Shown piece by piece: positions 12,562 through 63,995 of a stretch of 64,000 bases of DNA (the stretch's first letter is position 1; the number at the start of each line of letters is the position of its first letter). Below the pieces are notes generated by a model that searched no databases, was not told the origin of the DNA, and was given only the letters and a program-made list of their open reading frames with translations. The translations under genes and the position numbers were made by a program. The stretch covers positions 421,117 to 485,116 of the forward strand of contig JACQZE010000003.1 in NCBI GenBank assembly GCA_016207885.1. Reading direction: 5' to 3'. The stretch is from Nitrospirota bacterium (GTDB taxonomy: Bacteria; Nitrospirota; Thermodesulfovibrionia; UBA6902).

Positions 12562-12672
12562 GATGTGAGAAAGTTTAAGAAAGGCATGAAACGTTTGGCT
12601 GTATTCTTGTCAGAGGTCATTTTGGAGACAGCGCGCTATTGCGAAAACAATCAAATATTTTGAGGTGACGTC

Positions 12673-13071: not shown

Positions 13072-13118
13072 AGGCAGGTTTTAAACTTGCCCCGACAATA
13101 AAAAAGGAGGATTTACAG

Positions 13119-13436
13119 ATGAAGATGATCAGGGCGTTTATAAGGCCGGAAAAAGAGCAGGAGGTAGTTTTGGCATTGGAGGGAGCCGGATTTCCGTCAC
13201 TCACAAAGATGCCGGTATTCGGAAGGGGAAAACAGAAGGGGCTTCAGGTGGGGCCGGTGCATTATGACGAACTTCCCAAAACCCTCATCATGACCGTTGT
13301 TGACACTGAAGATGTCGGGAAAGTGATCGGGATAATAGAGGGCAAGGCAAAGACCGGTTTTATCGGTGACGGGAAGATATTCGTCAGCCCGGTTGATGCT
13401 GTTTACACCGTCAGGACCGGGGAGGCTGTGCTATGA
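13119..13436 (+). CDS. nifI1: nitrogenase-associated PII-like regulator NifI1
   Basis: 105-aa PII-fold ORF (MKMIRAFIRPEK...GRGKQKG...GDGKIFVSPV), paired and overlapping (ATGA) with a longer PII-like ORF. Confidence 0.75.
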   Translation: MKMIRAFIRPEKEQEVVLALEGAGFPSLTKMPVFGRGKQKGLQVGPVHYDELPKTLIMTVVDTEDVGKVIGIIEGKAKTGFIGDGKIFVSPVDAVYTVRTGEAVL

Positions 13437-13849
13437 AGGAGATCACCGCGATCATCAGAAGGGACAAGCTCCCTGAGACCAAAAAGGCGCTTGATGAACT
13501 GGGTTATCCCGCGATGACAATTCAGAGCGTAGACGGGAGAGGAAAACAAAAAGGCGCGATGTGCGCGGAGATGGATTCTGAAATGCCCGAGAGCTTCTGC
13601 ACGGCAGCGAAATTAAAACCGACTCCATCCACATATGCGCTTGAACATACATTGCCGAAGGCCGCCCTCTATGTGCCAAAGAGGATGCTTACTGTTGTTG
13701 TGCCTGATGATGTTGTGATCAAGCTTGTGAAATCAATTATTAAGGTCAACCAGTCAGGCAAGCGCGGAGACGGAAAGATATTTGTTTCGCCCATTGAAGG
13801 CGCTGTCAGGGTAAGGACAGGAGAGATGGACGGCGAGGCGATCTCATAA
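13433..13849 (+). CDS. nifI2: nitrogenase-associated PII-like regulator NifI2 (extended T-loop)
   Basis: 138-aa PII-fold ORF with a long insertion between GRGKQKG and GDGKIFVSPI. Confidence 0.75.
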   Translation: MKEITAIIRRDKLPETKKALDELGYPAMTIQSVDGRGKQKGAMCAEMDSEMPESFCTAAKLKPTPSTYALEHTLPKAALYVPKRMLTVVVPDDVVIKLVKSIIKVNQSGKRGDGKIFVSPIEGAVRVRTGEMDGEAIS

Positions 13850-13859
13850 AGGAGGCATT

Positions 13860-14135
13860 ATGTCAATTACAGGGTACACAAGAGGCGGGCAGGAATGGAC
13901 GCCGAAGTTTATAGAATCCATAGATGCTGACAAGTGCATCGGCTGCGGACGCTGTTACAAGGCCTGCAGCCGGGATGTGCTTGAGCTGATCGAGAAGCCC
14001 TTTGAAGGTGAAGACGAGTACGGAGATGACATGGGCAACAAGGTGATGTCTGTCGCAAATCCAGGGAACTGCATCGGCTGCGAGGCTTGCTCAAAGATCT
14101 GCACAAAGAGATGCCATGTGCATACAGAGGTTTAA
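13860..14135 (+). CDS. 2x[4Fe-4S] ferredoxin
   Basis: Two clusters: CIGCGRCYKACS and CIGCEACSKICT. 91 aa. Confidence 0.75.
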   Translation: MSITGYTRGGQEWTPKFIESIDADKCIGCGRCYKACSRDVLELIEKPFEGEDEYGDDMGNKVMSVANPGNCIGCEACSKICTKRCHVHTEV

Positions 14136-14136
14136 G

Positions 14137-15033
14137 ATGAAAACAATTCTTAAGAGCAGCGACAAAAAACATATCATAAGCACGCACCCGTGTTTCTCTA
14201 AGGAGGCGCACAACAGGTTCGGAAGAATTCATCTGCCTGTAGCGCCTGCCTGCAACATTCAGTGCAAATACTGCGTAAGGAAGTATGACTGCGCCAATGA
14301 ATCAAGGCCCGGCATAACAAGCAGGGTGCTGACCCCGTATGAGGCATTGGAAAGGGTCAGGTCATTGGTTGAACGGAATGAGCGCCTGACCGTTATAGGC
14401 ATTGCAGGGCCGGGAGACCCGCTGGCAAATGACGCGACATTTGAGACATTCAGCGCGATCCACAGGGAATATCCCGAACTGACGCTCTGCGTCTCAACAA
14501 ACGGGCTGCTGCTTTCCGACAGGCTTGATGATCTTATCGGGGCAGGAGTGAGCAGCCTGACGGTTACAATAAATGCTGTCATTCCAGAGATAGCTGAAAA
14601 GATATATTCATGGGTGTCGTACAACGGCAGGCTTTATAAAGAGAGAGAAGCCGCCGAATGCCTTCTGCTGAATCAGTGGGAAGGGCTCGGAGCGGCTGTT
14701 GAGGCTGGGCTTATCGTAAAAGTTAACACGGTTTTTATCCCGGGAGTTAATGACGAAGAGATCCCATTTATCGCCAGGTTTGCCGGCCACAAGGGTGCGG
14801 AACTGATGAATATCATGCCGTTGATCCCAAAAGGTGAGTTTGAAGATCTTCATAGGCCGTCTCGTGAAGCCGTCCATGTAATGCGCGAGAAATGCGGAAA
14901 GCACATTTCGCAAATGACTCATTGCAAACAGTGCCGGGCGGATGCCTGCGGAACTCTTGATGAAGATAAAGATATGGAACTTGAAGTTCTGCATTCGAGG
15001 ATCGGGGAAGATTATTGTGAAATTATTAATTGA
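14137..15033 (+). CDS. nifB: FeMo-cofactor biosynthesis radical-SAM protein NifB (SAM domain only, no NifX-like C-terminal domain)
   Basis: PACNIQCKYCVRKYDC is the CxxxCxxC radical-SAM motif. NifB-like GPGDPLAN and TNGLLL segments are present. The start was trimmed to MKTILK. Confidence 0.8.
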   Translation: MKTILKSSDKKHIISTHPCFSKEAHNRFGRIHLPVAPACNIQCKYCVRKYDCANESRPGITSRVLTPYEALERVRSLVERNERLTVIGIAGPGDPLANDATFETFSAIHREYPELTLCVSTNGLLLSDRLDDLIGAGVSSLTVTINAVIPEIAEKIYSWVSYNGRLYKEREAAECLLLNQWEGLGAAVEAGLIVKVNTVFIPGVNDEEIPFIARFAGHKGAELMNIMPLIPKGEFEDLHRPSREAVHVMREKCGKHISQMTHCKQCRADACGTLDEDKDMELEVLHSRIGEDYCEIIN

Positions 15034-15061
15034 AAGAAGCGGTCAGCTGTCTGAAATAGAA

Positions 15062-15787
15062 ATGGAGCGTTACCGCAGGCAACTGATGCTTCACGGGTTC
15101 ACTGAAGAACATCAGCGTAAGCTGAAGGATTCAACCGCGCTGATAGCGGGCATCGGCGGCCTTGGAGGGACTGCCGCAATATATCTCGCTGTTGCCGGGA
15201 TAGGAAAGATGGTCTTCGCCCATTACGGAAATCTCACGCTCTCCAACATGAACAGGCAGATTCTGATGCGGCATGACCGGATCGGGGGAAGCAGGGTTGA
15301 GCAGGCCATGAGGACAATTGAAGAGATAAATCCCGATGTGGAGGTTGAGGCCTTTAATGAAAGGACATCAGAAGGCAATGTTGGGAATCTTCTCGACGGA
15401 ATTCAGATAGCGCTTTCTGCCAGGCCCAATTTCCGCGAGCGGAGAATCTTAAACAATGCCTGTGTCAGAAGAAATATTCCCATGGTTGAGGCTGCCATGA
15501 ACGGCATGGAGGGGTATCTTTTTAATGTAATTCCCGGAATAACTCCCTGCCTAAATTGCCTGTATCCTGAAGATAACCCGGAGTGGGAAGAGCTTGGTTT
15601 TCCCGTGCTTGGCGCAGTCTCCGGCGTACTCGGCTGCCTGATGAGCATAGAGACGATAAAGCTCCTGACAGGTTATGGGAAACCCCTGCGTTCTCAAATG
15701 CTGGTATTCAATACTATGGATCTGGATTTCAGAAAAATGAATACGAGAAGAGATATCAAGTGCATGGTATGCGGGAATTTGAATTAA
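15062..15787 (+). CDS. hesA: HesA/MoeB/ThiF-family E1-like protein
   Basis: YRRQLMLHGF...LIAGIGGLGGTAAIYLAVAGIGKM is the Rossmann segment, with a C-terminal CLNC...CMVC pair. The start is uncertain (ATG 15062 or GTG 15017). Confidence 0.65.
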   Translation: MERYRRQLMLHGFTEEHQRKLKDSTALIAGIGGLGGTAAIYLAVAGIGKMVFAHYGNLTLSNMNRQILMRHDRIGGSRVEQAMRTIEEINPDVEVEAFNERTSEGNVGNLLDGIQIALSARPNFRERRILNNACVRRNIPMVEAAMNGMEGYLFNVIPGITPCLNCLYPEDNPEWEELGFPVLGAVSGVLGCLMSIETIKLLTGYGKPLRSQMLVFNTMDLDFRKMNTRRDIKCMVCGNLN

Positions 15788-15830
15788 CCTGACAGGGATA
15801 TTAATAAAACAGCAATCACATACTACAACC

Positions 15831-15908
15831 CGTCATTCCGGCTTGTCCGGAATCTTTCTTTGTTTTAAGCAGGATAAGCCTTCGGATTCCCGACAAGCGG
15901 GAATGACA
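15831..15908. repeat. long inverted repeat (23-bp arms, GTCATTCCGG-type) between hesA and nifV
   Basis: cgtcattccggcttgtccggaat ...32 nt... attcccgacaagcgggaatgacag. Related half-sites occur at 5209-5232 and 24136-24147. Confidence 0.6.
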
Positions 15909-15920
15909 GCAATAATAAGG

Positions 15921-17069
15921 ATGAAACTCATGGCAAGAAAAAATAAAATAGAAATTCTCGACACAACCCTGCGGGAGGGAGAACAATCAAGAGGCATTCT
16001 CTTTACCACAGCGCAAAAAATAAAGCTCGCTGAAAAGCTTGACTGCTTCGGAGTGGATTTTATCGAACTGGGGCATCCGGCTGCGTCACCGTCCATACGG
16101 AAGTCTGTTGCCGTAATTTCCTCACTCGGGCTAAAGGCGCAGACAGTTGCCCATGCACGGGCAAAAAAAGAAGATATAGACATTATCCGGAGCTGTAAAA
16201 CAGCATGGGCCGGGATATTTTCCGGTATCAATTCGCTCAGCCTTGACTATCGGCTGCGCTCAGACAGAAAAACGGTTGCCGCCAATATCCTGAATGCCAT
16301 TAAGCATGCGAAAGACTGCGGCCTCAAGGTGCGTTTCACCTGCGAGGATGCTTCAAGGACTGACAGGAAGGAATTAATTGACCTGTACGCAATGGCGGTT
16401 GATGCCGGAGCAGACAGGATATGCGTTGCCGATACTGTCGGGATACTGACTCCGTCAAAGACAAAGGCGTTGATAGCTTATATTAAGAAACACGTCACAG
16501 CAGATATGCATGTCCATCTTCACAATGATTTTGGATTAGCCTCTGCCAATGCGCTTGCAGCTTATGAAGCCGGGGCGAGCGCGATAGATGTTTCTATCAA
16601 CGGCTTGGGAGAACGCTCGGGAGTGGCGGCGCTTGCCGAGGTATGTATGGCGCTCAAGCAGTTGTATACTGTGAATAACATCTGGGATCTGAAGCTGCTG
16701 CCGGAACTTTCAGCAATGGTATCAAGCTTCACAAGGTCGCCCATTGAATATTCACGGCCGATTGTAGGCAGAAATGTATTCTCCCATAAAGGCGGCATCC
16801 ACAGCGCCTCTGTTATGAAAAATCCTGAAACGTATGAACCCTTCCCTCCGGAAATCCTCGGGATAGGCCGCACTATCGTCATCAGCAGATTGATCGGCAG
16901 GCAAGGACTTGAAGGCGTATTGAAACCAGCACGACAGCTCTCACATAAGGATATCGAACATATCATCGGCAGAATCAAAAACAACGGCAATATAGAATTT
17001 ACAGACAAAGATGTAGCCCGTGTGATGAGAAACTTCAAAAGAGAAGACAATGCCCGCATATTGTCATAG
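15921..17069 (+). CDS. nifV: homocitrate synthase (HMGL-like, 2-isopropylmalate synthase family)
   Basis: ILDTTLREGEQS...GVDFIELGHPAA...HLHNDFGLA, in nif context. The start is ambiguous (ATG 15903, 15921 or 15930). Confidence 0.7.
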   Translation: MKLMARKNKIEILDTTLREGEQSRGILFTTAQKIKLAEKLDCFGVDFIELGHPAASPSIRKSVAVISSLGLKAQTVAHARAKKEDIDIIRSCKTAWAGIFSGINSLSLDYRLRSDRKTVAANILNAIKHAKDCGLKVRFTCEDASRTDRKELIDLYAMAVDAGADRICVADTVGILTPSKTKALIAYIKKHVTADMHVHLHNDFGLASANALAAYEAGASAIDVSINGLGERSGVAALAEVCMALKQLYTVNNIWDLKLLPELSAMVSSFTRSPIEYSRPIVGRNVFSHKGGIHSASVMKNPETYEPFPPEILGIGRTIVISRLIGRQGLEGVLKPARQLSHKDIEHIIGRIKNNGNIEFTDKDVARVMRNFKREDNARILS

Positions 17070-19070: not shown

Positions 19071-19777
19071 ATGAAAATTTTCAGAGTTGTTGCAGTAAAA
19101 ATGATTTTACTTGTAATGTTTGCAGGCATCGCTTCTGCCACACCGTCAACACAGATATGGATACCATCGTCCGATATTCAGGCGTTTAAAATATCAAGAC
19201 AGAAAGCCAGGACGGCGTTAACGAAGCGACCGTCACAAATTTAGGTTTGACCGTTGGCGTGCTGCCTTTTGAGAAGGTTCAGGCTGAGGTCGGGGTGGAT
19301 TACAGGGATGCCAACGGTAATCATGAATACCCCCTTCTGTTCAATGTAAAGTTAGGCACACCCGAAGGCGTGTTATTTGAGGGTTCGCCTGCAATAGCGG
19401 TTGGAGGATATGATTTCGGAACAGAGAGCGATGTAAGCGACTATAACCTTGTCTACGGCATTGTGGCAAAGACCTTCGGGCCGGTTGGCAGGATCTCAGC
19501 CGGATATTACACCGGCAACAAAGACCTTTTGCTTGATATAGACGGCAATAAAGATAATACAGGCGTGCTCCTTTCATGGGACAGGACCATCTCTGAAATA
19601 TCGGACAAGCTCTGGGCCGCTGTCGATTATCAGGGAGGAAAGAACGGTTACGGAGCTTTGAGCTTTGGCGCGGCATGGAAATTCGCTCCGAACGTAGGCG
19701 TGATATTCGGTTATGATATTTATAATGAGAGCGTTCTTAAACCGACTGCGACCATACAGTTGGATGTAGACTTTTAA
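19071..19777 (+). pseudogene. small outer-membrane beta-barrel (porin-like) protein, signal peptide and barrel in different frames
   Basis: The ATG at 19071 encodes the signal peptide MKIFRVVAVKMILLVMFAGIASA TPSTQIWIPSSDIQAFK. The barrel ORF (from 19190 in the +2 frame) ends ...IQLDVDF with a C-terminal Phe. A 1-nt indel in the A-run near 19187-19192 would fuse the two frames. Confidence 0.5.
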
Positions 19778-19795
19778 TAGAAGGAGGGAAATGAA

Positions 19796-21103
19796 ATGAA
19801 ACGATTATCAAGTATTTTATTTGCTGCGCTGACACTATTGAGCATCGCGGGTTTTGCCTTTGCAGAAGGGGCTGCGCCCACGGTTGATACCGGCGATACG
19901 TCGTGGATGCTGATCTCAACCGCGCTTGTCATGCTGATGACGCCGGGGCTCGCGTTATTTTACGGCGGCATGGTGAGGCGGAAGAACGTGCTGGGAACGA
20001 TAATGCAGAGCTTTATCGCCCTCGGTGTCGTAACCATTATCTGGGTGCTTTACGGTTACAGCCTGTCGTTCGGGCCGGATGTCGGGCATGTCATAGGCAA
20101 TCTCGACTGGGCCTTCTTAAACGGCGTAGGGCTTGAGCCGAATACGGATTACGCGGCAACGATACCGCATCAGACCTTTATGATATTCCAGATGATGTTC
20201 GCCGTCATCACTCCCGCGCTTATAACAGGAGCGTTTGCCGAGCGGTTCAAGTTCAGCACGTATCTCGTCTTCATTGTGGTATGGGTAACGTTTGTATACT
20301 TCCCGCTTGCTCACTGGGTATGGGGAGTCGGAGGATGGATAAGGAATCTCGGCGCGCTTGATTTCGCAGGCGGCCTGGTAGTTCATATCAGTTCAGGTGT
20401 ATCGGCGCTGGCTGCGGCGATAGTTGTAGGCAAGAGAAAGGGTTACGGCAAGGAAGCGATGATGCCGCATAACGTCACAATGACGCTGCTCGGAGCCGGG
20501 TTATTGTGGTTCGGATGGTTCGGGTTTAACGGTGGAAGCGCGGTCGCGTCAGGAGCTCTTGCGACATCAGCCTTTGTTGTTACGCATATCGCAACGGCAG
20601 CGGCTGCATTATCATGGACGTTTGCTGAATGGAAGCACAGGGGCAAACCGACAGCACTCGGCGCAGCATCAGGCGCGGTTGCCGGGCTTGTCGCGATCAC
20701 CCCGGCCTCAGGTTTTGTCGGGCCTATGTCATCAATAGTTATCGGCCTTGTGGCAGGCGTCTTATGTTACTGGGCGGTAAATCTCAAGACAAAATTCGGC
20801 TACGATGACTCGCTGGATGCGGTGGGAGTTCACGGTGTAGGCGGCACATGGGGCGCGATAGCTACCGGCTTATTCGCTTCAAAGGCGATTAATGCGGCAG
20901 GCAATGACGGCCTGTTTTTTGGAAATTCGTCTCTCATGATGAATCAATTGATAAGCATCGGCGCCTGCTGGGTCTATTCCTTTGTGGCCACATTGATCAT
21001 ATTAAAGATTCTCGATGCAATGATGGGGCTGAGGGTTGACGAAGAGAGCGAAATGGCAGGATTAGACCATGCGCAGCATGGGGAAAGCGGATACACATTA
21101 TAA
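19796..21103 (+). CDS. amt: ammonium transporter
   Basis: 435 aa with an N-terminal signal. Contains the Amt signatures LALFYGGMVRRKN, FAERFKF and DFAGGLVVH. Confidence 0.9.
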   Translation: MKRLSSILFAALTLLSIAGFAFAEGAAPTVDTGDTSWMLISTALVMLMTPGLALFYGGMVRRKNVLGTIMQSFIALGVVTIIWVLYGYSLSFGPDVGHVIGNLDWAFLNGVGLEPNTDYAATIPHQTFMIFQMMFAVITPALITGAFAERFKFSTYLVFIVVWVTFVYFPLAHWVWGVGGWIRNLGALDFAGGLVVHISSGVSALAAAIVVGKRKGYGKEAMMPHNVTMTLLGAGLLWFGWFGFNGGSAVASGALATSAFVVTHIATAAAALSWTFAEWKHRGKPTALGAASGAVAGLVAITPASGFVGPMSSIVIGLVAGVLCYWAVNLKTKFGYDDSLDAVGVHGVGGTWGAIATGLFASKAINAAGNDGLFFGNSSLMMNQLISIGACWVYSFVATLIILKILDAMMGLRVDEESEMAGLDHAQHGESGYTL

Positions 21104-21469
<366 letters not shown>

Positions 21470-21478
21470 CAGGCGATA

Positions 21479-21521
21479 GCTGTCCTACATTTTTGTCGGA
21501 GCTACAAAAATGTAGGACAGC
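21479..21521 (+). terminator. long perfect hairpin after glnK (18-bp stem)
   Basis: GCTGTCCTACATTTTTGT cggagc TACAAAAATGTAGGACAGC, followed by ttgatttgt. Confidence 0.45.
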
Positions 21522-21557
21522 TTGATTTGTAACCCATTAACAATAAAGAGTTTTAAG

Positions 21558-21575
21558 CTGGTACGCTTCTTGATA
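21558..21575 (+). promoter_or_regulatory. degenerate sigma-54-like promoter (TGGTAC-N5-TTGAT)
   Basis: 14 of 17 positions are identical to the promoter at 18779, but the -12 GC is replaced by GA. Weak. Confidence 0.25.
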
Positions 21576-21600
21576 TATAGCATACGCTTATTGGCCTTAA

Positions 21601-23305
<1,705 letters not shown>

Positions 23306-23306
<1 letters not shown>

Positions 23307-23989
23307 TGTCAGTTCTTATCATAAAAAACATAAAGTCTGAGGGCCCCGGAACGATCGAGGGCTTTCTTAAGGCAAAAGGCATGGAATACAGCATTATTGA
23401 CCTGTCCGACTGCAAGGCCGAGATCCCTGACACAAGGGATTATTCCCATCTTGTAGTTATGGGCGGGCCCATGGCTGTATATGAAATGGACGACCATTCA
23501 TTTCTCAGTTATGAAGCCGCGATAATCAGGGCCTTTATTAAAAATGGAAAGCCTGTGCTGGGCATCTGCCTCGGCGCGCAGATGATAGCATACGCGCTTG
23601 GAGCAAGGGTCTACGCCGGCGCGGTAAAAGAGGTCGGATGGCATGAGGCCCGCATAACAGAAGAGGGCATGAAAGATCCCGCATTTGCAGCCCTGTCCGT
23701 AAACGGCGGGCCTTTCGCAGAGGTCTTTCAGTGGCATGGCGACACCTTCGACCTGCCGCAAAAAGCTGTGAGAACGGCCTTTTCAGACAAGTATGAAAAT
23801 CAGTCGTTCAGATACGGAGATAACATCCATGCGCTTCAGTTCCATATAGAGGTCACTCCTGAGATCATCAGGGAATGGTTCGCGGATCAAAAGGGAGAAG
23901 ATATCGACAATATGCTAAGGCATTCAGAGAACGTGTACCCTGAATATCACAAAAGGGCTCTGAAATTTTACGAGAAGTTTTTTGCTTAA
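23306..23989 (+). CDS. class I glutamine amidotransferase (GuaA N-domain-like)
   Basis: GPMAVYE, VLGICLGAQM (nucleophile Cys) and QFHIE (the His/Glu of the catalytic triad). Confidence 0.75.
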
Positions 23990-24000
23990 AGCCTTGTTGT

Positions 24001-24150
24001 TATTCCCCCTTATAAAAGCCAACAGTAGGCGCTTTAAGCGGGGGATACAGGGGGATGTTGAGATAAAACACACCCCCTAACCCCTCTTATTAGAGGGGAT
24101 GATTCCGGTCAAGCCAACAGTAGGCAAGACGAAGCCGCCGGAATGACATA
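24001..24150. repeat. composite palindromic element cluster, intergenic (GATase-glnA)
   Basis: tattCCCCCttataaaagccaacagtaggcgctttaagcGGGGGatacaGGGGGatg ... cacaCCCCCtaaCCCCTCTTATTAGAGGGGatgattccggtcaagccaacagtaggcaag...gccgccggaatgac. Confidence 0.75.
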
Positions 24151-24168
24151 AAAATATTAAACTAAAAC

Positions 24169-24187
24169 TGTCAACTTATAGCTGACA
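24169..24187 (+). promoter_or_regulatory. TGTCA-N9-TGACA palindrome 23 nt upstream of glnA
   Basis: tgtcaacttatagctgaca has perfect 5-bp arms. It resembles, but does not match in spacing, the GlnR/TnrA TGTNA-N7-TNACA box. Confidence 0.35.
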
Positions 24188-24209
24188 ATTAAATCCAAAG
24201 GAGGAAAAA

Positions 24210-25622
24210 ATGACACCAAAAGACGTACTGAAAATGGCTCAGGAGAACAAGGCCGTAATGGCCAACTTCAAGTTCCTTGATTTCCCGGGAATTTGGCAGC
24301 ATTTTGCCGTGCCTGTTGACGAACTCAAGGAGGAAATATTTGAGGAAGGCCTCGGATTCGACGGCTCATCCATCAGGGGATGGCAGGCGATAAACACATC
24401 GGACATGCTCATTATGCCCGATCCGAACACGGCATTCATGGATCCATTCATGAAGTACCCGACGATCAGCCTTATCTGCAACATCGTGGATCCGATTACA
24501 AAGGAGTTCTACACAAGAGACCCGAGATACATCGCGCAGAAGGCAGAGGCGTATCTTAAATCAACCGGCGTGGGAGACACCGCATACTTCGGGCCTGAGG
24601 CTGAGTTCTTCATCTTTGACGGCATAAGGTTCGATCAGAATTCCCACAGCGGCTACTACCATATCGACTCTGTAGAAGGCATCTGGAATTCCGGCAGGGA
24701 GGAGAATCCAAACCTCGGTTACAAACCCAGGCATAAAGAAGGATATTTCCCTGTCCCGCCGACAGACAGCCAGGTTGACATAAGGACAGAGATGGTCATG
24801 GAGATGATCAAGTGCGGCATCTATGTCGAAAGGGAACATCATGAGGTCGCAACAGCAGGACAGGCTGAGATTGACATGAGATTCGATTCGCTTGTCAACA
24901 TGGCTGACAAGAACATGCTCTTTAAATACATAGTCAAAAACGTGGCAAAGCGTAACGGCAAGACAGCGACATTTATGCCAAAGCCATTATTCGGCGACAA
25001 CGGCTCAGGCATGCACGTTCACCAGAGCATATGGAAAGGCGGAAAGCCGCTCTTCGCAGGCAATGGTTATGCCGGCTTAAGCGAGATGGCAATCTACTAC
25101 ATCGGCGGCGTATTGAAGCACGCAAAGTCGCTTGCAGCTCTGACCAATCCGACCACAAATTCATATAAGAGACTGACTCCGGGATTCGAAGCTCCGGTAA
25201 ATCTCGCATACTCAGCGAGAAACCGTTCAGCGTCAATAAGGATACCGACCTACTCGGCAAATCCGAAGGCAAAGAGGGTTGAGGTGAGGTTCCCTGACCC
25301 GTCATGCAACACATACCTCGCCTTTGCAGCTATGCTCATGGCAGGCCTTGACGGGATCGAGAACAAGATCAATCCGGGCGAACCGCTGGATAAGGATCTT
25401 TACGATCTGCCGGCAGAGGAGCTTAAGAACATCCCGCAGATGCCGGGCAGCCTTGACGAGGCGCTTGACGCTCTTGAGAAAGACCACGCATTCCTTCTGA
25501 AAGGCAATGTCTTCACGGAAGACGCCATTTCAAAATGGATAGACTACAAGAGGACAAATGAGGTAGACGCGCTCAGGCTCAGGCCGCATCCGTACGAGTT
25601 CTTCCTGTATTACGATATTTAA
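24210..25622 (+). CDS. glnA: glutamine synthetase type I
   Basis: 470 aa with ...[12 protein letters not shown]...[10 protein letters not shown]...GSGMHVHQS... RBS GGAGGA. Confidence 0.95.
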
Positions 25623-25725: not shown

Positions 25726-28441
25726 TTAATCGTCCTTATATCTCCTGAAATTCTTTACCAGCTTTTCAAAGGTATCCGGCTTATACTTTTCAAAGTCTCC
25801 TTCATCCACAAAGACAAAATTAAACCTGCATTTTTTCTGTGATGCATTGATGTCCGCGCACCAGTTTTTCAGCCGTTCCATTTTCAAAGGCACATCAAGG
25901 TCTTCAAGGCCTTTCGTCTCCACAATATATGTTTCCTTTTCATTGGCCTTGACTATAAAGTCCGGGTAGTAATTTGAGATGCTGCCGTCGGCAGTCACAT
26001 AGTCGAGCCTGAAATGAACGGCAAGGTAGTTCTTTGCGTAAGAAATAATATCTGGGCATTGCTCCAGGAATGATGCAAAGAGGAGTTCAAGGCGGCTGTC
26101 TCCGATGATTTTATTGAAGATGCTTTTTTGAGGAATGAGAAAGCCCTGATCCTTCACAACAAACGGCCTTGTCTGCCGCAATTTAATATAGTCCCGTATC
26201 TCGGCGCTTCCTTTATCAACCACTGTAAGCTCATTTATCTTTTTCTTGAATGTCTCAATTATAGTCTTGCTTGCCTCAAGCTCAGAGAGATTGCGGATTG
26301 TGTTCAGATCGTCAATATCCGCAATCCTGTCAAACAGATGTTCGGCTATAAAGGTTTTTACCTTTCCATAAAGCACATCATAACCGCTTATCAGGCGGAG
26401 GTCTTTCATAATGACCTGTGCAAAGTAGCCGATTACGCTCCGGCAATCGGCAGCCATTGCCGAATCAAGATATGTCGTGTGCGTAATCTCACCGGTTGTT
26501 ATATCTTTAAAAACAATCTCCCTTTTCTCCTCTTCGGAAAATTGCCTGTACTCCACCTTTCTTGTGCCGAACATTGAGGGCGCAAGCTCTTCAAGATTTT
26601 TGTATTCCCTGTATATCCTTGGGGAAAGCACAGGGATTTCTATATCAAGCCCGTCAATGTCCTTTTTCCTGTTTTCATTGTCTATCTCAATAATGATCGG
26701 CGCCTTTGCAGCAGTGCCTTCACCCATCGGCTTGCGCTCAAGCTCAACGCCCTCGCTCTGGATGGACTCAACAAAATCCATAAAGGCATTGGTCCCGACA
26801 ACGCTGACATACTCTGTCGTATCAGTTCCCGGATACATCCTTCTCAATCCCCGGCCGAGCGTCTGCTCCGGCAGGATATTGCTCTTTGCTGCATACGCCC
26901 TTAAGCCGACGATGGTAGTTACGTTCCTGACATCCCAGCCTTCCTTGAGCATGAGGACCGAGACAATTGCCTTATACTGGCTTTCCATTCCGTCAATCTT
27001 GTTGGACGCCTTTCTCAGCTTTTCAAGCTCATCTTTGGACTTCTTAGAATCAGCCTCGGAGATCTCACCGTTATTGTTCGTATGAATAACAAGCACGGCG
27101 TCTTTAAATTCAGGATAAGTATTCTCAAGATGTTCTGCCACATCATCACAGTTTTTTGTGTCATCCGTCATTATGAAAAGCACAGCCTTTTTACTCATCT
27201 TCTCATGTTCGGCATATGCCTTGCGCCATTCTTCCACGCCAAGCGCAATATAGTCAGCGTATTTTTCCGTATAGCGTGAGCTTTGACGCTCCTGAAGTTT
27301 TGTCCGGCTTGCCGCATCCGGCAATACGGGATGCTTGACCACGTTCTGCGTAATTGCCTCAACAAGCGGATAATCCGAGACCGTCTGCACAAAGATCGCC
27401 CCGTTATTGTGCTTGGGAGTTGCCGTTACATCTATTTGCAGAGAGAGGAAATGGTCCTTCTGCTTCAGGCGGTTGTGGATGTCTTCAATGGATTTAAACC
27501 ACGCCAGACGGTTGTCATGGATGTGGTGAGCCTCATCATTAATGACAATAAGCTCGTCAATTTCACGGACAATGACACCGAGGTCAACCTTTGAGTCAGT
27601 GGTTTTACCCGTGGGCCTTTTACCGAGAAAGTAGTCCGTCAAATCATCATCGTCAAAGTTCGGCTCAATGTCATCTCCGGCATATACGCGATGGATATTT
27701 GTGAGAAAGATATTGCCGGTCTTTCGGATAATGGACACATCATCCTGAATATGCAAGGTCAGTTGAAAATCGTCCTGCCAATTCCTGCCCTCATAGCCAT
27801 TATCCGGCAAGAGCGGGTCATCAAAGAAAACCCGAAGCCCGTCAAAGTCAGCACGAAGACGGTCAAGGACAATAATATTAGGCGCAATGATAAGGAAGTT
27901 TGTTGACAGCTTTGAATCAGGCTCATAGAGCTTGTGGAAATAACACCATGTAACTACGAGGCTCATAACCTTTGTCTTGCCGCTTCCGGTTGCCATTTTT
28001 ATGACAAGACGAAGCCAGTCTTCATAAAACATCCCTGCGGATACCGCTCCTGATGAGTCATAACGTATCAGGTCGTATTTGTCTTTGACCTTAACAACTT
28101 CATAGAGATAAATAACCGTTTCAATAGCCTCGCGCTGGGCAAAATAATAACGAAACTCATACCCCCCTTTATTTCCCCCCTTATCAAGGGGGGATTGAGG
28201 GGGGGTAAGGAATAATGTGTTCCGTTTTGAACCACCAGTTAATCAGGGCTTTGCTTGTTTCAGTTGCGCCATCATAACCGGAATCACGCCATTGTTTAAC
28301 ATCCCTTCGTATTTTATTGACCAGCGGAGGCAGGAGTTTGCCATAACTTGATTCCCACAAAGCCTCATCAGCCGGAAACCAGCGGATATCGGGATGAAGT
28401 ATTTCATAGGAGGAATTTGGGAATGAAGGATGAATTGCCAT
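25726..28441 (-). CDS. res: type III restriction enzyme Res subunit (helicase), split by a frame change inside a palindromic-repeat insertion
   Basis: The 768-aa ORF 25726..28032 starts at Walker A (TGSGKT) and carries the DEAH box (IVINDEAHH) plus a C-terminal endonuclease region. The N-terminal 85 aa (28184..28441, ...ALINWWFKTEHIIPYPPSIPP) are in another frame. The helicase frame reads through the repeat as ...SLPPLNPPLDKGGNKGGYEF... back to a stop at 28240. Confidence 0.6.
28156..28210. repeat. palindromic element copy inside res (at the frame break)
   Basis: ataCCCCCCtttatttCCCCCCTTATCAAGGGGGGattgaGGGGGGGtaagg contains C6-7 and G6-7 homopolymers. Confidence 0.75.
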
Positions 28442-28672: not shown

Positions 28673-30080
28673 TCAGGCCCAATATGGCACATACTTGGCA
28701 TAACGTTTTGACTTGCTATCTGGATCGTCCAGCTTTACCAGACCTTCATCAACTGCATCTGAAATAATACGTGATATTGTTTCTGCCTTGATCTCTGGCA
28801 ACTTGAAACGCTCTCGCAGGCTCTGGTTTGTCATTTTTTTGTTACTGACATACCGTAAACAACAGTGCTGATAACAAGCCCTGCTTCGCTCTTTTCTGTC
28901 CATCTCCTCAAATGCTTTGTGTGCAAACAAGATAACACTTGTATTACGCTCTCCAACGCGGAAATCAGGAGCTGGCAACTGCCATGCCTCAGCCAGCCCG
29001 ACCACTTTGTCAATGCCGCTGCTCTTTTCTTCGCATATTCCAAAACGCCGCATTAAATCGGCCAGTCGATCATTGCGAGCTTTATACTCATCAATAAAGC
29101 GGTCAGGAGGAATTAACGGTTTGCCGGGATTAGAAATCTCAATTCGATCAGAATATATTTCTACCATAACAAACGAGCCGAAATCCTCTACATCCTGATG
29201 GATGAGAGCATTTGCAACCAGTTCCCGAATAGCGAGTTCAGGATACATCCGCACATCGCTTCGAAGTGCCTGGCCAACCACTTCATTCGCGGGCAACTGG
29301 CTATTTATAAAATCGATAAGTCCCTCGAACCCGACTGCATACCCTTTAGTGCCCGGCTGATCCCGAACAGTCTCAAGTTTGTTTGAGCCACGATAAACAA
29401 TCACCCTTGGCTTTGCGTTGAAGTCCGTTGAAATCGCGCAGATCCTTGGCCAGTAAAATAGCTCCAAGATTTGTAATGTCCCAGCCATTGCTGTTTTTTA
29501 TAATAAGATGTTCGCTCTCACAACGAGCTAAGACTCCATCTCGATTAGCGGGATAAGGGAGTTTGAGCAATTCGAACAGGCTTTGTGTATCAAGAAGGCG
29601 TACAACCTTGTCAGCATCAGCGCCTTTTAAGGCAGGGCGTAAAAGGAATTCGGGCTTCCCCTCATCGAAAATCCGGCGGAGAAGGTCCTCGGTCATAGGC
29701 ACAAGGTCTTCACCCGCCCTCATGAGATATGCCCCTTCAAAGGCCAGAGCCGTTCCTGCCGGACGGGAAGGTACAATGAAAACGAGAACTCGCCCATCGG
29801 GATGAGAAACTTCTTCAATCTCTACCCTTATGCGCAGTGTTTCGGCAATACGTGCCTTGATGGCACCAAGGTCAGAAAAAGCAAGCGTTCCTACCACTCT
29901 CCGGGGCAGACGGTTTGACACTCCCAATACCAGTTGGCCGCCGCCTTCATTAGCAAGCGCTACGCAATAGCGCAACAGTTTCACTGTATCAAATTGCTGT
30001 TTGGCCTCTTTAAATTCCAGCCGCTCATGTTCTCGGGGAACGGTCAGTAATTGGTCAATGGCATCCGGTGTCCAGCTCAC
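28673..30080 (-). pseudogene. AlbA_2 (divergent AAA/Schlafen-like) + HATPase_c_4 domain protein, split into two overlapping ORFs
   Basis: ORF 29373..30080 carries the AlbA_2 N-domain (EHERLEFKE..., ...NLGAILLAKDLRDF). ORF 28673..29488 carries the ELVANALIHQD...IEISNPG HATPase_c_4 core. The frames switch within the microrepeat gaTTTCAACGgaCTTCAACGc (about 29420-29440). Confidence 0.55.
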
Positions 30081-33827: not shown

Positions 33828-34259
<432 letters not shown>

Positions 34260-34311
34260 TTATTCTATTACAAATCAAGATATCGGTTATATTAGCAAAA
34301 AATCATTAATT

Positions 34312-37110
34312 ATGCCTTTTAAACCATTAATAGAAATATCCACGGCTGCTCGCGACACTTCTGACCCGAAGAGGGCTGAAAGGAACCTCGCAAGGTTCTT
34401 TGAAGAGAATCATAAGGGCGGGCTTGCCCATGAACATTTAGAAATTACAGCCAGGCTCTTTGCGTCAAGCCAGTTTCTCGCGAATTTCTGCATCGCCAAT
34501 CCTGAAGAGCTATATTCTGCAATAGATGAGAGCAATAATGAGGTTACCAAAGAGCTTCTTCAGCTAAGGGCGGTTAGAGAACTCGTCTTCAGTGAAGGAG
34601 CTGATACAAATGATGTAATAAAGGCGCTCAGGATATTCAAGAAGCGTTATCTGCTGAGGATAACCTTGAGAGACCTTTCAGGCAAAGCGGGTATCCAGGC
34701 CATAATGCATGAACTCTCCCGTCTTGCGGAGGTTGTTATTTCCGAAGCGCTCTCCTTCTCTCTAAGATCCAATCAGTCAAGGTTCGGCGCGCCTTCTGAA
34801 AGCGCTGTCACTCTTATCGCCCTTGGAAAACTTGGAGGCGAGGAACTTAATTACAGCTCGGATGTTGACCTGATAGCTGTTTATGCCAATGATGAGGGAG
34901 AGACATCAGGCGTCGCAAACCCGTCAGGTGTGATCTTCAACAGGATAAGCAACCATGAGTTCTATTGCAAGGCCGTAGAGCTCTTCAGTAAATTGCTCTC
35001 CGCGCAGACTGAAGACGGGGTTGCATACAGGGTTGACCTGAGGTTAAGGCCGCAGGGGCAAAAGGGAGACATAGCCCTGCCTGTCAAGGCATATCAGACT
35101 TATTATGAGTCATGGGGCCGGACATGGGAGAGGATGGCGCTTATAAGGGCGAGGCCTGTAGCAGGCGATACAAAGTTGGGCGCGGCGTTCATGAAGACGG
35201 CAAATTCATTCGTCTGGAGAGAGACGCTTGACTTCACTGAGATAGAGGAGATCAAGGGGCTGAAGAAGAGCATAGACTCCGCATTCTCAAGAGATGATAT
35301 TAAACGCGGTTACGGCGGCATCAGGGAGGCTGAGTTCTTTGTCGAGACGTTTCAGCTTCTGTTTGCCGCAAAGAACAGCTCTTTAAAGACCTGCAGGATA
35401 CTTGACGCCATCAAGGCGCTCAAGGATATGAAGATGATCCCTGAGGAAGACCTTACGATACTTTGGGAAAACTACCTTTATTTAAGGCGCGTTGAGCACT
35501 ATCTTCAGATGAAGGAAGACCTTCAGACACACACTCTGCCTTCATCTGATGAAGAGATTGAAGCTCTCGCGAAGAATATGGGCTTTCCGTCCGGCGAGGA
35601 CTTTCTTGCAGGCCTGCGTGTGAGGAGGATGCAGGTCAAGTCCATGTACAACGGGCTGCTCGGCACCACTGAGGATGTCCATACTGAGGCGCTGAACCTG
35701 CTGGAAGGCGAGCTGAAAGACCATGAGCTCAGAAGCTACCTTTCATTCAGAAAGGTGAGAAAGCCTGATCAAAGTTTAATGAACCTCAACAAGATAAGAG
35801 AGCACATGCGCGTCTTCCGCACGATGCAGGAGCGTTCTCTGTCAAGAAAGGTCATGCCGCAGCTTCTTGAAAGCGCCCTGACCGCTGAGGATCCTGACAG
35901 CGCTATCGCCGGCATTGAAAGCCTGCTGACATCATTCGGCATAAAGACAGCCCACCTTACAGCCCTTATGGAGCAGAAGGAACTGATGGAAGGCATTATC
36001 AAGATATTTTCATTAAGCTCTTATCTCTCAAGGATATTCCTCAGCAGCCCGTACTATTTTAATATGCTGATCGAAGACTGGTTCATATATAAGACGCTCA
36101 AGTCCATAGAGGAAAAACTCCAAAAAACAACCAGTGAAAATGAAGATTTTAATTTTCAGGCCGCAAGGTTCAGGAGGCTTGAAGAGGTCCGTCTCGGAAT
36201 GCTCTTTCTTCAGAAGATACTTGATACTGAGACCCTTTTCAGGGACATGTCATATCTTGCGGAAGCGGTCATTAACGTGATAACGGATAAATATATTCAG
36301 AGCGGGCTTTCCGTTGTCGCACTCGGAAAACTCGGCGGAAGAGAGATGACCTTCGGATCCGACCTTGACATAATCTTTATTGCAGAGACATCTGAAGCAG
36401 CTTCAGCAGCTGAAAAGATCATGAAGTCGCTGACATCATATACCGACGCCGGGCTGCTCTACAGTGTTGATACAAGGCTGAGGCCCGACGGTTCAAAAGG
36501 CAGCCTTGTCAAGAATATAAAAGGATATAAAGATTACTATCTTGAGAAGGCGCATCCGTGGGAACTTCAGGCTCTGCTTCGGGCAAGGCCTGTGGCCGGC
36601 GACGCGGAGATAGGAGATGAGTTTTTGTCTATGGCTTCATATGTGATAAAAAAGAGAGGCATTGATGTGAAGAAGCAGGAGATAGCCGGCATGAGGAAGA
36701 GGATAGTGAAAGAGCTGTCGCGGGAATCCGACGGCATTGATATCAAGCTCGGCCCCGGAGGCATAGAGGAGATCGAATTTCATGTCCAGTATCTCCAGCT
36801 TCATAACGCGGAAAAGTATCCGGAGGTGCTTGTCCAGAATACGCCAGCCGCGATCAAAAGGCTTGCCAAATCCGGAATAATCTCAGAGACGGAAAAGACG
36901 ATATTGCTTGATGCGTATGAATACCTGCGAAAGATCGAGACGCTTATGAAGCTGAACAGCATAAATATTATCAACTCTGACCCTGACTTCATAGTGCCTG
37001 CGGCTCTCTTTATGAAGCATAAGAACAGCGATGAGTTCCTCGCACGCCTGAGGTCTGTGAGAGAGGGCGTGACCAAAGTTATCTTTGATGTTATAGAATA
37101 TAAACCATGA
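34312..37110 (+). CDS. glnE: bifunctional glutamine synthetase adenylyltransferase/adenylyl-removing enzyme
   Basis: Two nucleotidyltransferase motifs (LIALGKLGGEELNYSSDVDLIAVY and VVALGKLGGREMTFGSDLDIIFIA) in a 933-aa protein. The start was trimmed to the ATG at 34312. Confidence 0.85.
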   Translation: MPFKPLIEISTAARDTSDPKRAERNLARFFEENHKGGLAHEHLEITARLFASSQFLANFCIANPEELYSAIDESNNEVTKELLQLRAVRELVFSEGADTNDVIKALRIFKKRYLLRITLRDLSGKAGIQAIMHELSRLAEVVISEALSFSLRSNQSRFGAPSESAVTLIALGKLGGEELNYSSDVDLIAVYANDEGETSGVANPSGVIFNRISNHEFYCKAVELFSKLLSAQTEDGVAYRVDLRLRPQGQKGDIALPVKAYQTYYESWGRTWERMALIRARPVAGDTKLGAAFMKTANSFVWRETLDFTEIEEIKGLKKSIDSAFSRDDIKRGYGGIREAEFFVETFQLLFAAKNSSLKTCRILDAIKALKDMKMIPEEDLTILWENYLYLRRVEHYLQMKEDLQTHTLPSSDEEIEALAKNMGFPSGEDFLAGLRVRRMQVKSMYNGLLGTTEDVHTEALNLLEGELKDHELRSYLSFRKVRKPDQSLMNLNKIREHMRVFRTMQERSLSRKVMPQLLESALTAEDPDSAIAGIESLLTSFGIKTAHLTALMEQKELMEGIIKIFSLSSYLSRIFLSSPYYFNMLIEDWFIYKTLKSIEEKLQKTTSENEDFNFQAARFRRLEEVRLGMLFLQKILDTETLFRDMSYLAEAVINVITDKYIQSGLSVVALGKLGGREMTFGSDLDIIFIAETSEAASAAEKIMKSLTSYTDAGLLYSVDTRLRPDGSKGSLVKNIKGYKDYYLEKAHPWELQALLRARPVAGDAEIGDEFLSMASYVIKKRGIDVKKQEIAGMRKRIVKELSRESDGIDIKLGPGGIEEIEFHVQYLQLHNAEKYPEVLVQNTPAAIKRLAKSGIISETEKTILLDAYEYLRKIETLMKLNSINIINSDPDFIVPAALFMKHKNSDEFLARLRSVREGVTKVIFDVIEYKP

Positions 37111-59500: not shown

Positions 59501-60039
59501 TTATGAATCACGCTTAGTCTTAAGCGCTTCCATTGCGTAAATGATCTGAGCGACTGACGCATTCAGCAGCCTTGCAAGCTTGCTGACAGGCGACTGCATG
59601 GCTCCGATAAGCATTGACAGCTGGACTTCTCTTGACGGAAGCTCTGAGATGGTCTTGATCTGCGCGGCATTGCAGACCCCGCCTTCGACCATTCCTCCCT
59701 TGATCTGGAGCTTTTCATTCGCCTTGCTGAATTCAAGCATCTGCTTGGCAAGCATAACAGGATCACCATAGCCGAACGCTACCCCTACAGGGCCTTTGAA
59801 CATCTCTTTTGCGGCATTAACAGGCGTCTCAACTGCGGCTCTCTTGGCAAGCGTGTTCTTGACTACCCTGTATTCGAAGGAATGTTCCCTCAGCTTCTTC
59901 CTGAGATCGGATATTTCCTCAACAGTGAGTCCCCTATAATCGGTAAAGATAAGACCTGTTGCCTTGCTGAACTTTTCCTGGAGCTCTGTTATTACACGGA
60001 CTTTCTCTTCTTTTTTCAGCTTCTTTCCCCCCTTTCCAT
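59501..60039 (-). CDS. rplJ: 50S ribosomal protein L10 (start reached only through a 1-nt frame change in a G6 run)
   Basis: The ORF-frame translation ...GGKKLKKEEKVRVITELQEKF...RGLTVEEISDLRKKLRE... has no in-frame start. The ATG at 60037-60039 (minus strand) reads MERGGKKL... only if the G6 homopolymer (60027-60032) were G7. Confidence 0.7.
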
Positions 60040-62380: not shown

Positions 62381-62533
62381 CTATGCCTTTGTCTCTTTAT
62401 GAATTACGTGCTGCCTGCAATGCTTGCAGTATTTCTTGAGATTAAGCTTCTCTTTTGTGTTCTTCTTGTTCTTTGTAGTGGAGTAGTTCTTATTCTTGCA
62501 GCTTGTACACTGTAAAAGTATTATATCCTGCAT
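62381..62533 (-). CDS. rpmG: 50S ribosomal protein L33
   Basis: [50 protein letters not shown] (50 aa, zinc-ribbon CxxC...CxxC). It is not in the supplied ORF track. Confidence 0.85.
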
Positions 62534-62573: not shown

Positions 62574-63673
62574 CTATTCAATGACCTTTGCGACAACACC
62601 TGCTCCCACTGTCCTTCCGCCCTCTCTCACCGCAAACCTCAATCCCTCTTCCATCGCTATGTTGCTTATGAGCTCAACTTCTATATTGACGTTGTCTCCG
62701 GGCATTACCATCTCTACTCCCTCAGGCAGCTGCGCTATTCCCGTTACGTCCGTCGTCCTGAAGTAAAACTGCGGCCTGTATCCTTTAAAGAACGGCGTAT
62801 GCCTTCCGCCCTCTTCTTTTGTAAGTATGTATACTTCCGCATTGAACTTCTTGTGCGGGGTTATGCTCCCTGGCTTTGCCAATACCATGCCTCTTTCAAC
62901 TTCGTCTTTGGCCGTTCCCCTGAGAAGCCTACGTTCTCTCCTACTTTCAATATTCCTCTTTCTACTCTGCCTGTACAGACTGTCCCTCTTCCTGAGATGC
63001 TGAATACGTCTTCTATCGGCATAAGGAACGGCTTGTCTGTGTCTCTTACAGGTGTCGGTATGTAACTGTCCAAAGCGTCCATCAGCTCTTTCAGGCTCTT
63101 GTATTCTTCTGCGTTAGGGTCTGTGCTGGTGCTCTCTATTGCTTTGAGCGCGGATCCCTTGATTATTGGAACATCATCCCCAGGAAAGTCATATTTGCTT
63201 AAGAGCTCTCTTATCTCCATCTCTACAAGCTCTAACAGTTCAGGGTCATCTACCTGGTCTGTCTTGTTCATGTATACGATTATGTACGGAACTCCTACCT
63301 GTCTTGCAAGAAGGATATGCTCTCTCGTCTGCGGCATCGGCCCGTCTGCTGCCGACACTACAAGCACTGCTCCGTCCATCTGCGCCGCTCCTGTTATCAT
63401 GTTCTTTACGTAATCAGCATGCCCCGGACAGTCTACATGCGCGTAGTGCCTTGCCGCTGTCTGGTATTCTACATGCGCTGTTGCTATGGTTATTCCCCTT
63501 GCCTTCTCTTCAGGGGCATTGTCTATGGAATCATATGCGCGGTATGTCGCTCCGCCGCCAAATGCCAAATATTTAGTTATAGCTGCCGTTAATGTCGTCT
63601 TCCCATGGTCAACATGCCCTATTGTTCCTACGTTAACGTGCGGCTTCCCTCTGTCAAATTTCGCCTTTGCCAT
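62574..63673 (-). pseudogene. tuf: elongation factor Tu, disrupted (two ORFs in different frames; about 33 codons of domain 2 absent)
   Basis: The N-terminal ORF 62861..63673 ([15 protein letters not shown]...[14 protein letters not shown]) and the C-terminal ORF 62574..62888 ([14 protein letters not shown]...VVAKVIE) are both unmistakably EF-Tu. They join only with a +1/+4-nt correction in the ttcttctc tract near 62922. The segment between canonical KVGE(EVEIVG...RAGE)NVG is missing. Confidence 0.7.
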
Positions 63674-63730
63674 TACTCCCCTCCTTTATTCCCCTTTGCC
63701 AACTGAGCTACATGGGCGTCTCCTTTATAA

Positions 63731-63805
63731 TGGAGCGGGAAACGGGACTCGAACCCGCGACCCTCAGCTTGGAAGGCTGACGCTCTACCACTGAGCTACT
63801 CCCGC
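63731..63805 (-). tRNA. tRNA-Gly (anticodon UCC)
   Basis: The reverse complement GCGGGAGTAGCTCAGTGGTAGAGCGTCAGCCTTCCAAGCTGAGGGTCGCGGGTTCGAGTCCCGTTTCCCGCTCCA has anticodon loop CU-UCC-AA. CCA is encoded. Confidence 0.85.
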
Positions 63806-63910: not shown

Positions 63911-63995
63911 TGGTGGAGAGGGGAGGATTCGAACCTCCGAAGGCGGAGCCGTCAGATTTACAGTCTGATCCCTTTGGCCACTCGGGAACCTCTCC
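63911..63995 (-). tRNA. tRNA-Tyr (anticodon GUA), long variable arm
   Basis: The reverse complement GGAGAGGTTCCCGAGTGGCCAAAGGGATCAGACTGTAAATCTGACGGCTCCGCCTTCGGAGGTTCGAATCCTCCCCTCTCCACCA is 85 nt. Confidence 0.88.

Follow-up and report, generated by a model that had tools for sequence, protein, structure and literature searches.

The tuf locus and its surroundings

The window analysed here, a stretch of 64,000 nucleotides from a Nitrospirota (Thermodesulfovibrionia-like) MAG, contains a tuf gene, encoding EF-Tu, that is broken in the deposited sequence. The gene belongs to a locus with the order tRNAs-tuf-rpmG-tRNA-Trp-secE-nusG-rplKAJL-rpoBC, which is also found in two relatives (L053 and L056), and rpmG directly downstream of tuf identifies the locus as a classical tufB-type arrangement. 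The features around the broken gene are listed in Table 1. Elsewhere, the window includes a nif cluster, P-II genes, amtB, glnA, glnE, a type III restriction-modification island, lptFG, and other genes. The nif content consists of nifH, nifD, nifK, a nifE-N fusion, a nifB-like gene and a nifV-like gene, and there are several genes for P-II proteins.

The Pfam domain coverage was essentially complete for the other genes of the window, with two exceptions. One is an AlbA_2/HATPase_c_4 gene (28673..30080, minus strand), which is interrupted by a partly duplicated insertion of 10 nt (TTCAACGGAC followed by TTCAACGCAA) at 29432..29413. The other is the type III res gene, which is divided into an 85-aa N-terminal ORF (28441..28184) and a main ORF (28032..25726), the split falling at a nested C7/C6/G6/G6 palindrome (28210..28160). 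The rplJ gene, listed with 100 aa, has a CTG start at 60019, as it does in two relatives (L056 and L002). It was considered as a further lesion and rejected, because it is in frame and its CTG start is conserved in the relatives.

Table 1. Features of the tRNA-tuf-rpmG region (window coordinates; nt numbers of tuf count from its ATG)
Feature	Position	Strand	Basis
tRNA-Tyr(GUA), the first member of the tRNA-tuf unit that the window includes	63911..63995	-	ARAGORN, Rfam; same position in L052 and L053
tRNA-Gly(UCC)	63731..63805	-	ARAGORN, Rfam
tRNA-Thr(GGU), first 20 nt, GCCCATGTAGCTCAGTTGGC; other 56 nt and most of the spacer absent	63698..63717	-	Alignment with L052 and L053
Joint 1; kept block starts at exactly -24 relative to the tuf ATG	63697..63698	.	
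24-nt leader, AAAGGGGAATAAAGGAGGGGAGTA	63674..63697	-	Compared with the L054 fusA-tuf junction and the L053 tRNA-Thr-tuf spacer
tuf nt 1-745, G domain and first strands of domain 2, ending GAGAACGTAG	62929..63673	-	
Joint 2, tuf nt 746-845 absent	62928..62929	.	Alignment; downstream contig of the other locus starts at nt 846 ±1
tuf nt 846-1200, last residues of domain 2, whole domain 3 and stop codon	62574..62928	-	
rpmG (L33), directly 3' of tuf	62381..62533	-	Exact match to MBI4825272.1

A single gap in tuf

As deposited, tuf occupies 1100 nt on the minus strand (63673..62574), whereas the gene has 1200 nt in each of the four closest intact relatives (L052, L053, L054, and L055), which were used for the length comparison and the alignment; the intact EF-Tu proteins most similar to it have 398-400 aa. 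The N-terminal ORF (63673..62861, minus strand) comprises 270 aa, that is, EF-Tu sequence followed by 21 out-of-frame residues and a stop codon, and the C-terminal part of EF-Tu (ending in AKVIE, with its stop at 62574) sits in another frame. A first-pass annotation, made from the sequence of the window, had recognized both halves as EF-Tu in different frames, and the translation as well as the Pfam matches to the G domain and domain 3 confirmed this. The G domain (PF00009) is complete (1-188/188, E = 2.7e-64), with NKTD visible in the translation among its G1-G4 motifs, and domain 3 (PF03143) is also complete (1-105/106). Domain 2 (PF03144), however, was matched at positions 1-24 of 73 only, under the curated cut-off.

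Alignment of the DNA with the relatives revealed a single clean 100-nt gap at the junction between 62929 and 62928. When a 100-nt pad was placed at this junction, the frame was restored and a full-length alignment of 399 codons was obtained. The missing segment, nt 746-845 of tuf, runs from the second base of codon 249 through codon 282 and thus amounts to 33 codons plus 1 nt in the alignment with the four relatives, in agreement with the loss of about 33 codons of domain 2 noted in the first-pass annotation. The frame change and the absent block of domain 2 are one lesion of 3n+1 nt. The first-pass annotation had instead placed the frame change in a TTCTTCTC tract and noted the loss of about 33 codons between two short repeats. 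A frame change in such a tract combined with a repeat-mediated loss of 33 codons is wrong in detail, since the tract is present on neither strand of 62574..63673 and the one 100-nt gap takes the place of both events. A repeat-mediated in-frame deletion of 96 nt combined with a separate deletion of 4 nt was also considered and was set aside as less parsimonious than one gap of 100 nt. The two GE-containing repeats of the first-pass annotation can be recognized only through the relatives, which carry GGAGAGAACGTAG and GGAGACAACGTAG, 96 nt apart, close to both ends of the gap. The left edge of the gap comes directly after this 13-nt motif, which the relatives repeat 96 nt downstream, but the gap and this imperfect direct repeat differ in register by 4 nt. 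The sequence at the junction is GAGAACGTAG on the left and GCTTCTCAGG on the right, the right-hand side being shown as GCTTCTCAGGGGA in the DNA alignment. Neither Ns nor microhomology were found at this joint or at the one upstream of tuf (63698/63697).

A second hole upstream of tuf

The upstream joint, some 750 nt away from the tuf gap, marks a further hole, which truncates tRNA-Thr(GGU) and was absent from the first-pass annotation. In two of the relatives (L052 and L053), the order is tRNA-Tyr, tRNA-Gly, tRNA-Thr(GGU), a spacer of 87-91 nt, and tuf. In the window, 20 nt of tRNA-Thr run straight into the last 24 nt before the ATG of tuf, and about 100-123 nt are absent compared with the relatives. 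No tRNA-Thr was detected at 63698..63717 by ARAGORN or Rfam. Across ten genes of the window, ACC and ACU account for 43% of the codons for Thr, and tRNA-Thr(GGU) is therefore needed.

The 24-nt leader retained between this hole and tuf reads AAA GGG GAA TAA (K G E stop) followed by AGGAGGGGAGTA, and can be read as a relic of the 3' end of fusA together with a Shine-Dalgarno sequence. For comparison, the fusA-tuf junction of L054 reads AGA GGC GAA TAA AGGAGGGGATAT, and AAAGGGGAATAAAGGAG is likewise present at the tRNA-type locus of L053, where an unrelated T-rich spacer precedes it. Since the leader is common to fusA-type and tRNA-type loci, the two types of tuf locus in this clade become similar from about -24 onwards, irrespective of any deletion.

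Absence of decay in the remaining tuf sequence

For the origin of the broken gene, the first-pass annotation had proposed two alternatives, namely the decay of a tufB paralogue and a mis-assembly to which a second copy of tuf had led. The dN/dS of the 1100-nt remnant against the four relatives was 0.033-0.043 (Nei-Gojobori), and that among the three distinct intact relatives, L055 being nearly identical to L052, was 0.039-0.057. When the remnant was compared with 121 homologues, 2 of 365 residues were unique to the window, one in a broadly variable column and the other in a column that has S/T in the two closest relatives; no unusual residues were found at conserved sites in this comparison. 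There are no further stops or indels in the surviving 1100 nt of tuf. The remnant thus shows no relaxed selection of the kind that a decaying paralogue would have, and the proposal of a decayed tufB paralogue is at odds with values of dN/dS (0.03-0.04) that are the same as among intact genes. The lack of signs of decay excludes an old pseudogene and leaves a very recent event or an artefact. Furthermore, two holes of ~100 nt without one small indel are not the usual spectrum for gene decay.

A second tuf copy in the same MAG

The L33, SecE, and RpoB proteins encoded in the window were exact matches to MBI4825272, MBI4825271, and MBI4825265, all of which are on a 514,766-nt contig of a Nitrospirota MAG. 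The same MAG contains two more EF-Tu fragments, both located at contig ends and both identical to the window. One of them, MBI4827047.1, is a partial EF-Tu of 117 aa (100% identical to the window) that starts with LLRG at codon 283 and extends to codon 399; it is encoded on a 16,901-nt contig that begins at tuf nt 846 ±1, matching the start of the right-hand block of the window. No L33, SecE, or RpoB of the species was found on this contig, the respective protein clusters having no further member, and the contig therefore represents a different tuf locus. The other fragment, MBI4825300.1 (HY807_02620, annotated as a hypothetical protein), is a partial protein of 39 aa that corresponds to tuf codons 1-39 and is cut off where a 244,515-nt contig ends (nt +117), its accession coming 28 after that of the window's L33. 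Its length had been predicted beforehand from k = 141 and the position -24, and among ten N-terminal peptides of 35-44 aa, the 39-mer alone was present. The sum of 117 and 24 is 141, which is the default largest k of MEGAHIT, and the blocks kept in the window begin at -24 and at 846. Between -24 and about nt 986, the sequence appears to be common to both copies. The organism has two tuf genes, one located after fusA, as implied by the 39-aa fragment, and the other at the tufB-type locus. The first-pass annotation had suggested looking for a second intact tuf, and a second copy is represented in the same MAG by the two contig-end fragments. Its suspicion of a mis-assembly caused by this copy gained support, because the contig ends (+117 and 846) match the joints within 1-2 nt.

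Breakage of contigs in tuf is common in this kind of data: tuf breaks contigs in about 26 of 50 NusG-anchored MAG loci and in all three closest relatives, so that any scaffold running through tuf has been bridged. In a sister MAG of the same accession series, the end of a fusA-tuf contig and the start of a tuf-rpmG contig overlap by 141/141 nt. Exact look-up of 247-249 aa did not retrieve an N-terminal partial EF-Tu ending at nt 745, which neither a real deletion nor a faulty assembly requires. A scan of JGI metagenomes with the 30-mer to the left of the tuf junction gave no match, protein searches retrieved no sequence of the same species from JGI data, and a 93-aa query covering the left side found no EF-Tu fragment of the same species, the best match having 78% identity among proteins shorter than ~1.75 times the query length.

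By its accession numbers, the MAG falls into the series of the Northern California groundwater MAGs, to which, for instance, MBI4844134.1 (JACQZG01, 'NC_groundwater_1561') belongs. Judging from this series and the taxon label, the MAG appears to belong to BioProject PRJNA640378, a project that used MEGAHIT and IDBA-UD. In the published procedure, Illumina reads were assembled with MEGAHIT 1.2.9 under default settings, and the contigs were then joined by IDBA-UD, used for its scaffolding function (He et al. 2021, PMC7906910). Prominent local assembly errors have been reported for IDBA-UD, together with the spread of the resulting broken genes into databases (Chen et al. 2020, PMC7111523).

Discussion

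The broken tuf gene is real in the deposited sequence, but most likely it is not a new biological feature. It is very probable that the scaffold was joined wrongly at two points across a collapsed tuf repeat. MEGAHIT, a de Bruijn assembler for short reads (largest k = 141), would have collapsed the stretch shared by the two tuf copies into one repeat piece, and the four unique flanks would then end at shared 141-mers. The scaffolding function of IDBA-UD would have strung together three pieces, namely the rpmG-side piece, the repeat, and the tRNA-side piece, cutting the start of the appended piece ~100 nt too far at both joints and inserting no Ns. The resulting scaffold would lack tuf nt 746-845 as well as nt 21-76 of tRNA-Thr and most of the spacer, and no read would be expected to span either joint. 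In scaffold paths of IDBA, negative distances would cause the appended contig to be trimmed by the overlap, which may be overestimated. In the plus orientation, the piece before each joint is kept up to its true end (nt 846 and nt -24, respectively), and the piece after it has lost its start. The 20-nt remnant of tRNA-Thr is then the trimmed end of the tRNA-side piece, and both tuf and tRNA-Thr at the tufB-type locus are most likely intact in the cell.

The mis-assembly is favoured because the positions of the joints match the contig ends of the second copy within 1-2 nt and conform to the arithmetic of k = 141. The node at nt 846 is by itself neutral, since a real deletion in one copy would create the same node. 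The end of the upstream hole at -24, however, is required by faulty scaffolding, whereas a real deletion would need a coincidence of roughly 5 in 90. Also on the side of the artefact, an equal overshoot of 100 nt at both joints would give a spacer of 68 nt here, compared with 87-91 nt in the relatives. Some observations do not fit easily with an artefact. A positive gap normally gets Ns, and joints without Ns require a putative over-trimming by the program. The left edge of the gap beside the 13-nt motif is what slipped-strand deletion favours, although the gap is out of register by 4 nt, and the two other split genes in the window suggest that there may be real pseudogenes in this genome.

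Alternatively, the gene could have been inactivated very recently by two real deletions, one of 100 nt in tuf and the other of ~100-120 nt in tRNA-Thr and the spacer. The cell would tolerate the deletions since its fusA-linked tuf, and presumably a further tRNA-Thr(GGU), are still intact; the presence of a second copy in the same MAG means that the tufB-type copy could be dispensable, and differential loss of tuf duplicates is well known, having reportedly been described by Lathe and Bork in 2001. A tufB-type gene and its co-transcribed tRNA-Thr(GGU) would then have been caught shortly after their loss in an uncultured nitrogen-fixing member of the Thermodesulfovibrionia, before any substitutions had accumulated and before gene conversion had either erased the deletions or copied them to the other gene. 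The clean joints without Ns, the imperfect direct repeat near both ends of the tuf gap, the other two split genes, and the node at nt 846, which such a deletion would likewise produce, are all consistent with this possibility. It is nevertheless unlikely, because the upstream hole stops exactly where the sequence common to both tuf loci starts (-24, with 117 + 24 = 141) and because the remaining 1100 nt show neither relaxed selection nor a small indel or stop, although a decaying gene normally has more small indels than 100-nt deletions. Furthermore, the loss would cost the cell the tRNA that reads 43% of the Thr codons counted, the gap does not keep the register of the repeat, and the start of the 16.9-kb contig at nt 846 would need an assembler that used the shared 3' segment twice.

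Readings other than the artefact and a real recent double deletion have, even when taken jointly, a very low probability. Strain variants are usual in metagenomes, and if intact and deleted alleles coexisted in the population and the scaffold followed the deleted one, an indel bubble would break the contigs exactly at nt 745 and nt 846. This heterogeneity would, however, have to meet the same coincidence at -24 as a real deletion, and since the contig that starts at nt 846 lacks the genes downstream of the tufB-type locus, its node is explained by the second gene copy and not by an allele, which makes heterogeneity highly improbable. The least credible possibility, which the loss of coding sequence in effect refutes, is that EF-Tu is functionally split or recoded in this organism, either by programmed frameshifting or as a G-domain protein and a separate domain-3 protein. 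In its favour, there is perfect conservation of the two halves and an intact ribosome-binding site, but domain 2, which binds aminoacyl-tRNA, lacks 33 codons that could not be brought back by frameshifting, there is no slippery site at the junction, and the architecture occurs in none of the 120 homologues listed (all 398-400 aa). The coincidences with assembly nodes account fully for the structure.

Several technical explanations other than the two faulty joints were also rejected. The window is not a concatenation of contigs in which the 16.9-kb contig would end near 46,028, because the beta-propeller gene at that position is continuous and aligns end to end with a paralogue, and because the 16.9-kb contig does not contain L33, SecE, or RpoB. 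Stripping of Ns from the window is unlikely, since a gap in the record would yield a partial protein of 248 aa and none exists. Cloning toxicity and MDA chimeras were dropped because the source is a shotgun MAG.

The locus can be compared with the tuf genes of E. coli and Salmonella, in which tufA and tufB are kept near-identical by gene conversion and are found in the arrangements rpsL-rpsG-fusA-tufA and thrU-tyrU-glyT-thrT-tufB. As for tufB in these bacteria, one copy here follows a cluster of Tyr, Gly, and Thr tRNA genes and is located upstream of secE-nusG-rplKAJL-rpoBC, and as for tufA, the other copy is located behind fusA, which is seen in L054 and implied here by the 39-aa fragment. 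The two copies also appear to be identical over about 1 kb, like the pair in E. coli and Salmonella. In contrast to these bacteria, rpmG and tRNA-Trp are located between tuf and secE, and the shared sequence reaches 24 nt upstream, with a relic of the stop region of fusA. Genuine tuf pseudogenes, in which a disabled tuf is found beside an intact paralogue, look alike at first sight; unlike them, the gene described here shows no relaxed selection or further lesions, and the borders of its lesion coincide with assembly nodes.

A further parallel is provided by the local assembly or scaffolding errors at collapsed repeats in MAGs assembled from short reads (Chen et al. 2020, PMC7111523), in which, as here, contigs from a de Bruijn assembly were joined by a paired-end scaffolder, a multi-copy gene was affected, and a broken coding gene entered the public record. 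The errors described in that study were unsupported consensus, Ns inserted despite an overlap, and a wrong number of repeats, whereas the two losses of ~100 nt found here contain no Ns and are of the opposite sign to the insertion of Ns despite an overlap. Most likely through a scaffolder joining overlapping unitigs across a repeat, the public record of this MAG holds an essential gene that is falsely 'frameshifted', and a tRNA has been lost. If this behaviour is systematic for the combination of MEGAHIT and IDBA-UD, silent holes of ~100 nt are to be expected at other repeat borders in the MAGs of the project, and such holes would raise pseudogene counts and reduce tRNA counts. A cheap in-silico test is available, because partial proteins at contig ends of the same assembly expose the nodes of the graph, and k-mer arithmetic ties them to a suspect junction. 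For the organism itself, the biological weight of the broken gene is small: the biology of the locus appears to be nothing unusual, and the cell most likely carries a pair of normal, intact tuf genes together with an intact tRNA-Thr(GGU).

The tRNA-Thr remnant and tuf as a contig breakpoint

The key to explaining the broken tuf gene turned out to be a tRNA-Thr(GGU) remnant, which is located beyond the coordinates assigned to the tuf lesion in the first-pass annotation and ends at the joint 63697|63698. At the same position, relatives contain a complete tRNA followed by a spacer of 87-91 nt. Across loci L002-L051 and L056-L058, the contig begins within the 3' portion of tuf in about 26 of 50 nusG-anchored MAG contigs, and likewise in all three of the closest relatives. 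In short-read MAGs of these lineages, contigs break almost universally at the tRNA-linked tuf copy. The closest intact relative, L052 (a 5760-nt contig of JGI 3300059818), contains tRNA-Thr, tRNA-Tyr, tRNA-Gly, tRNA-Thr and tuf, directly followed by rpsJ-rplC-rplD, and pairs the tRNA-type flank upstream of tuf with an S10-operon flank downstream. This contig may be chimeric, crossing between tuf copies, or may represent a genuine single-copy arrangement.

Features of the window and of the compared leader region (window coordinates, except for the last line)
Feature	Position	Strand	Remarks
Compact nitrogen-fixation and nitrogen-regulation region	5770-17069 and 19247-25622		
Type III restriction res gene, split	25726-28441	minus	lesion 28160-28210
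AlbA_2 (Schlafen-like) + HATPase_c_4 gene	28673-30080	minus	lesion 29413-29432; inside type III R-M island
glnE and another P-II gene	33891-37110		
rplJ (L10, 172 aa)	59501-60019	minus	CTG start
24-nt leader of tRNA-linked tuf	63674-63697	minus	AAA GGG GAA TAA + AGGAGG
tRNA-Thr(GGU), first 20 nt only	63698-63717	minus	between tRNA-Gly and tuf; joint 63697|63698
Compared leader region in L054 (fusA-tuf locus of a close relative)	5977-6000		

Other genes in the window

Two genes of the type III R-M island are split. A partly duplicated insertion of 10 nt (TTCAACGGAC|TTCAACGCAA) divides the AlbA_2/HATPase_c_4 gene into ORFs of 235 and 271 aa that overlap; it could be a real frameshift or a further assembly blemish. 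The res gene consists of an N-terminal ORF of 85 aa (28184-28441) and a main ORF of 768 aa (25726-28032), and a nested G/C palindrome, TTACCCCCCCTCAATCCCCCCTTGATAAGGGGGGAAATAAAGGGGGGTA, is located at the split site; this split could come from phase variation in a homopolymer, from insertion of a small palindrome or from an error in sequencing.

No ATG, GTG or TTG start was found for rplJ in the window. Its CTG codon, located 6 nt past a Shine-Dalgarno-like GGGGGGA run, is kept in two relatives (L056, 2746-3264; L002, about 2757), and L10 was shortened to 79-93 aa by gene callers on Logan contigs.

The nitrogen region encodes nifH, nifD, nifK, a fused nifE-N (894 aa) and a nifX-like gene, together with two nifI-like P-II genes, a ferredoxin, a radical-SAM nifB-like gene, ThiF and homocitrate synthase. 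All of these are followed by two amtB-P-II pairs, a GATase and glnA.

A fusA relic in the tuf leader

The leader of the window tuf reads as a remnant of the region around the fusA stop codon, with its Shine-Dalgarno sequence. This fusA-stop fossil is also found upstream of the tRNA-linked tuf in another species (L053, about 5974-5990). The tuf duplication or gene-conversion tract therefore takes in the last codons of fusA.
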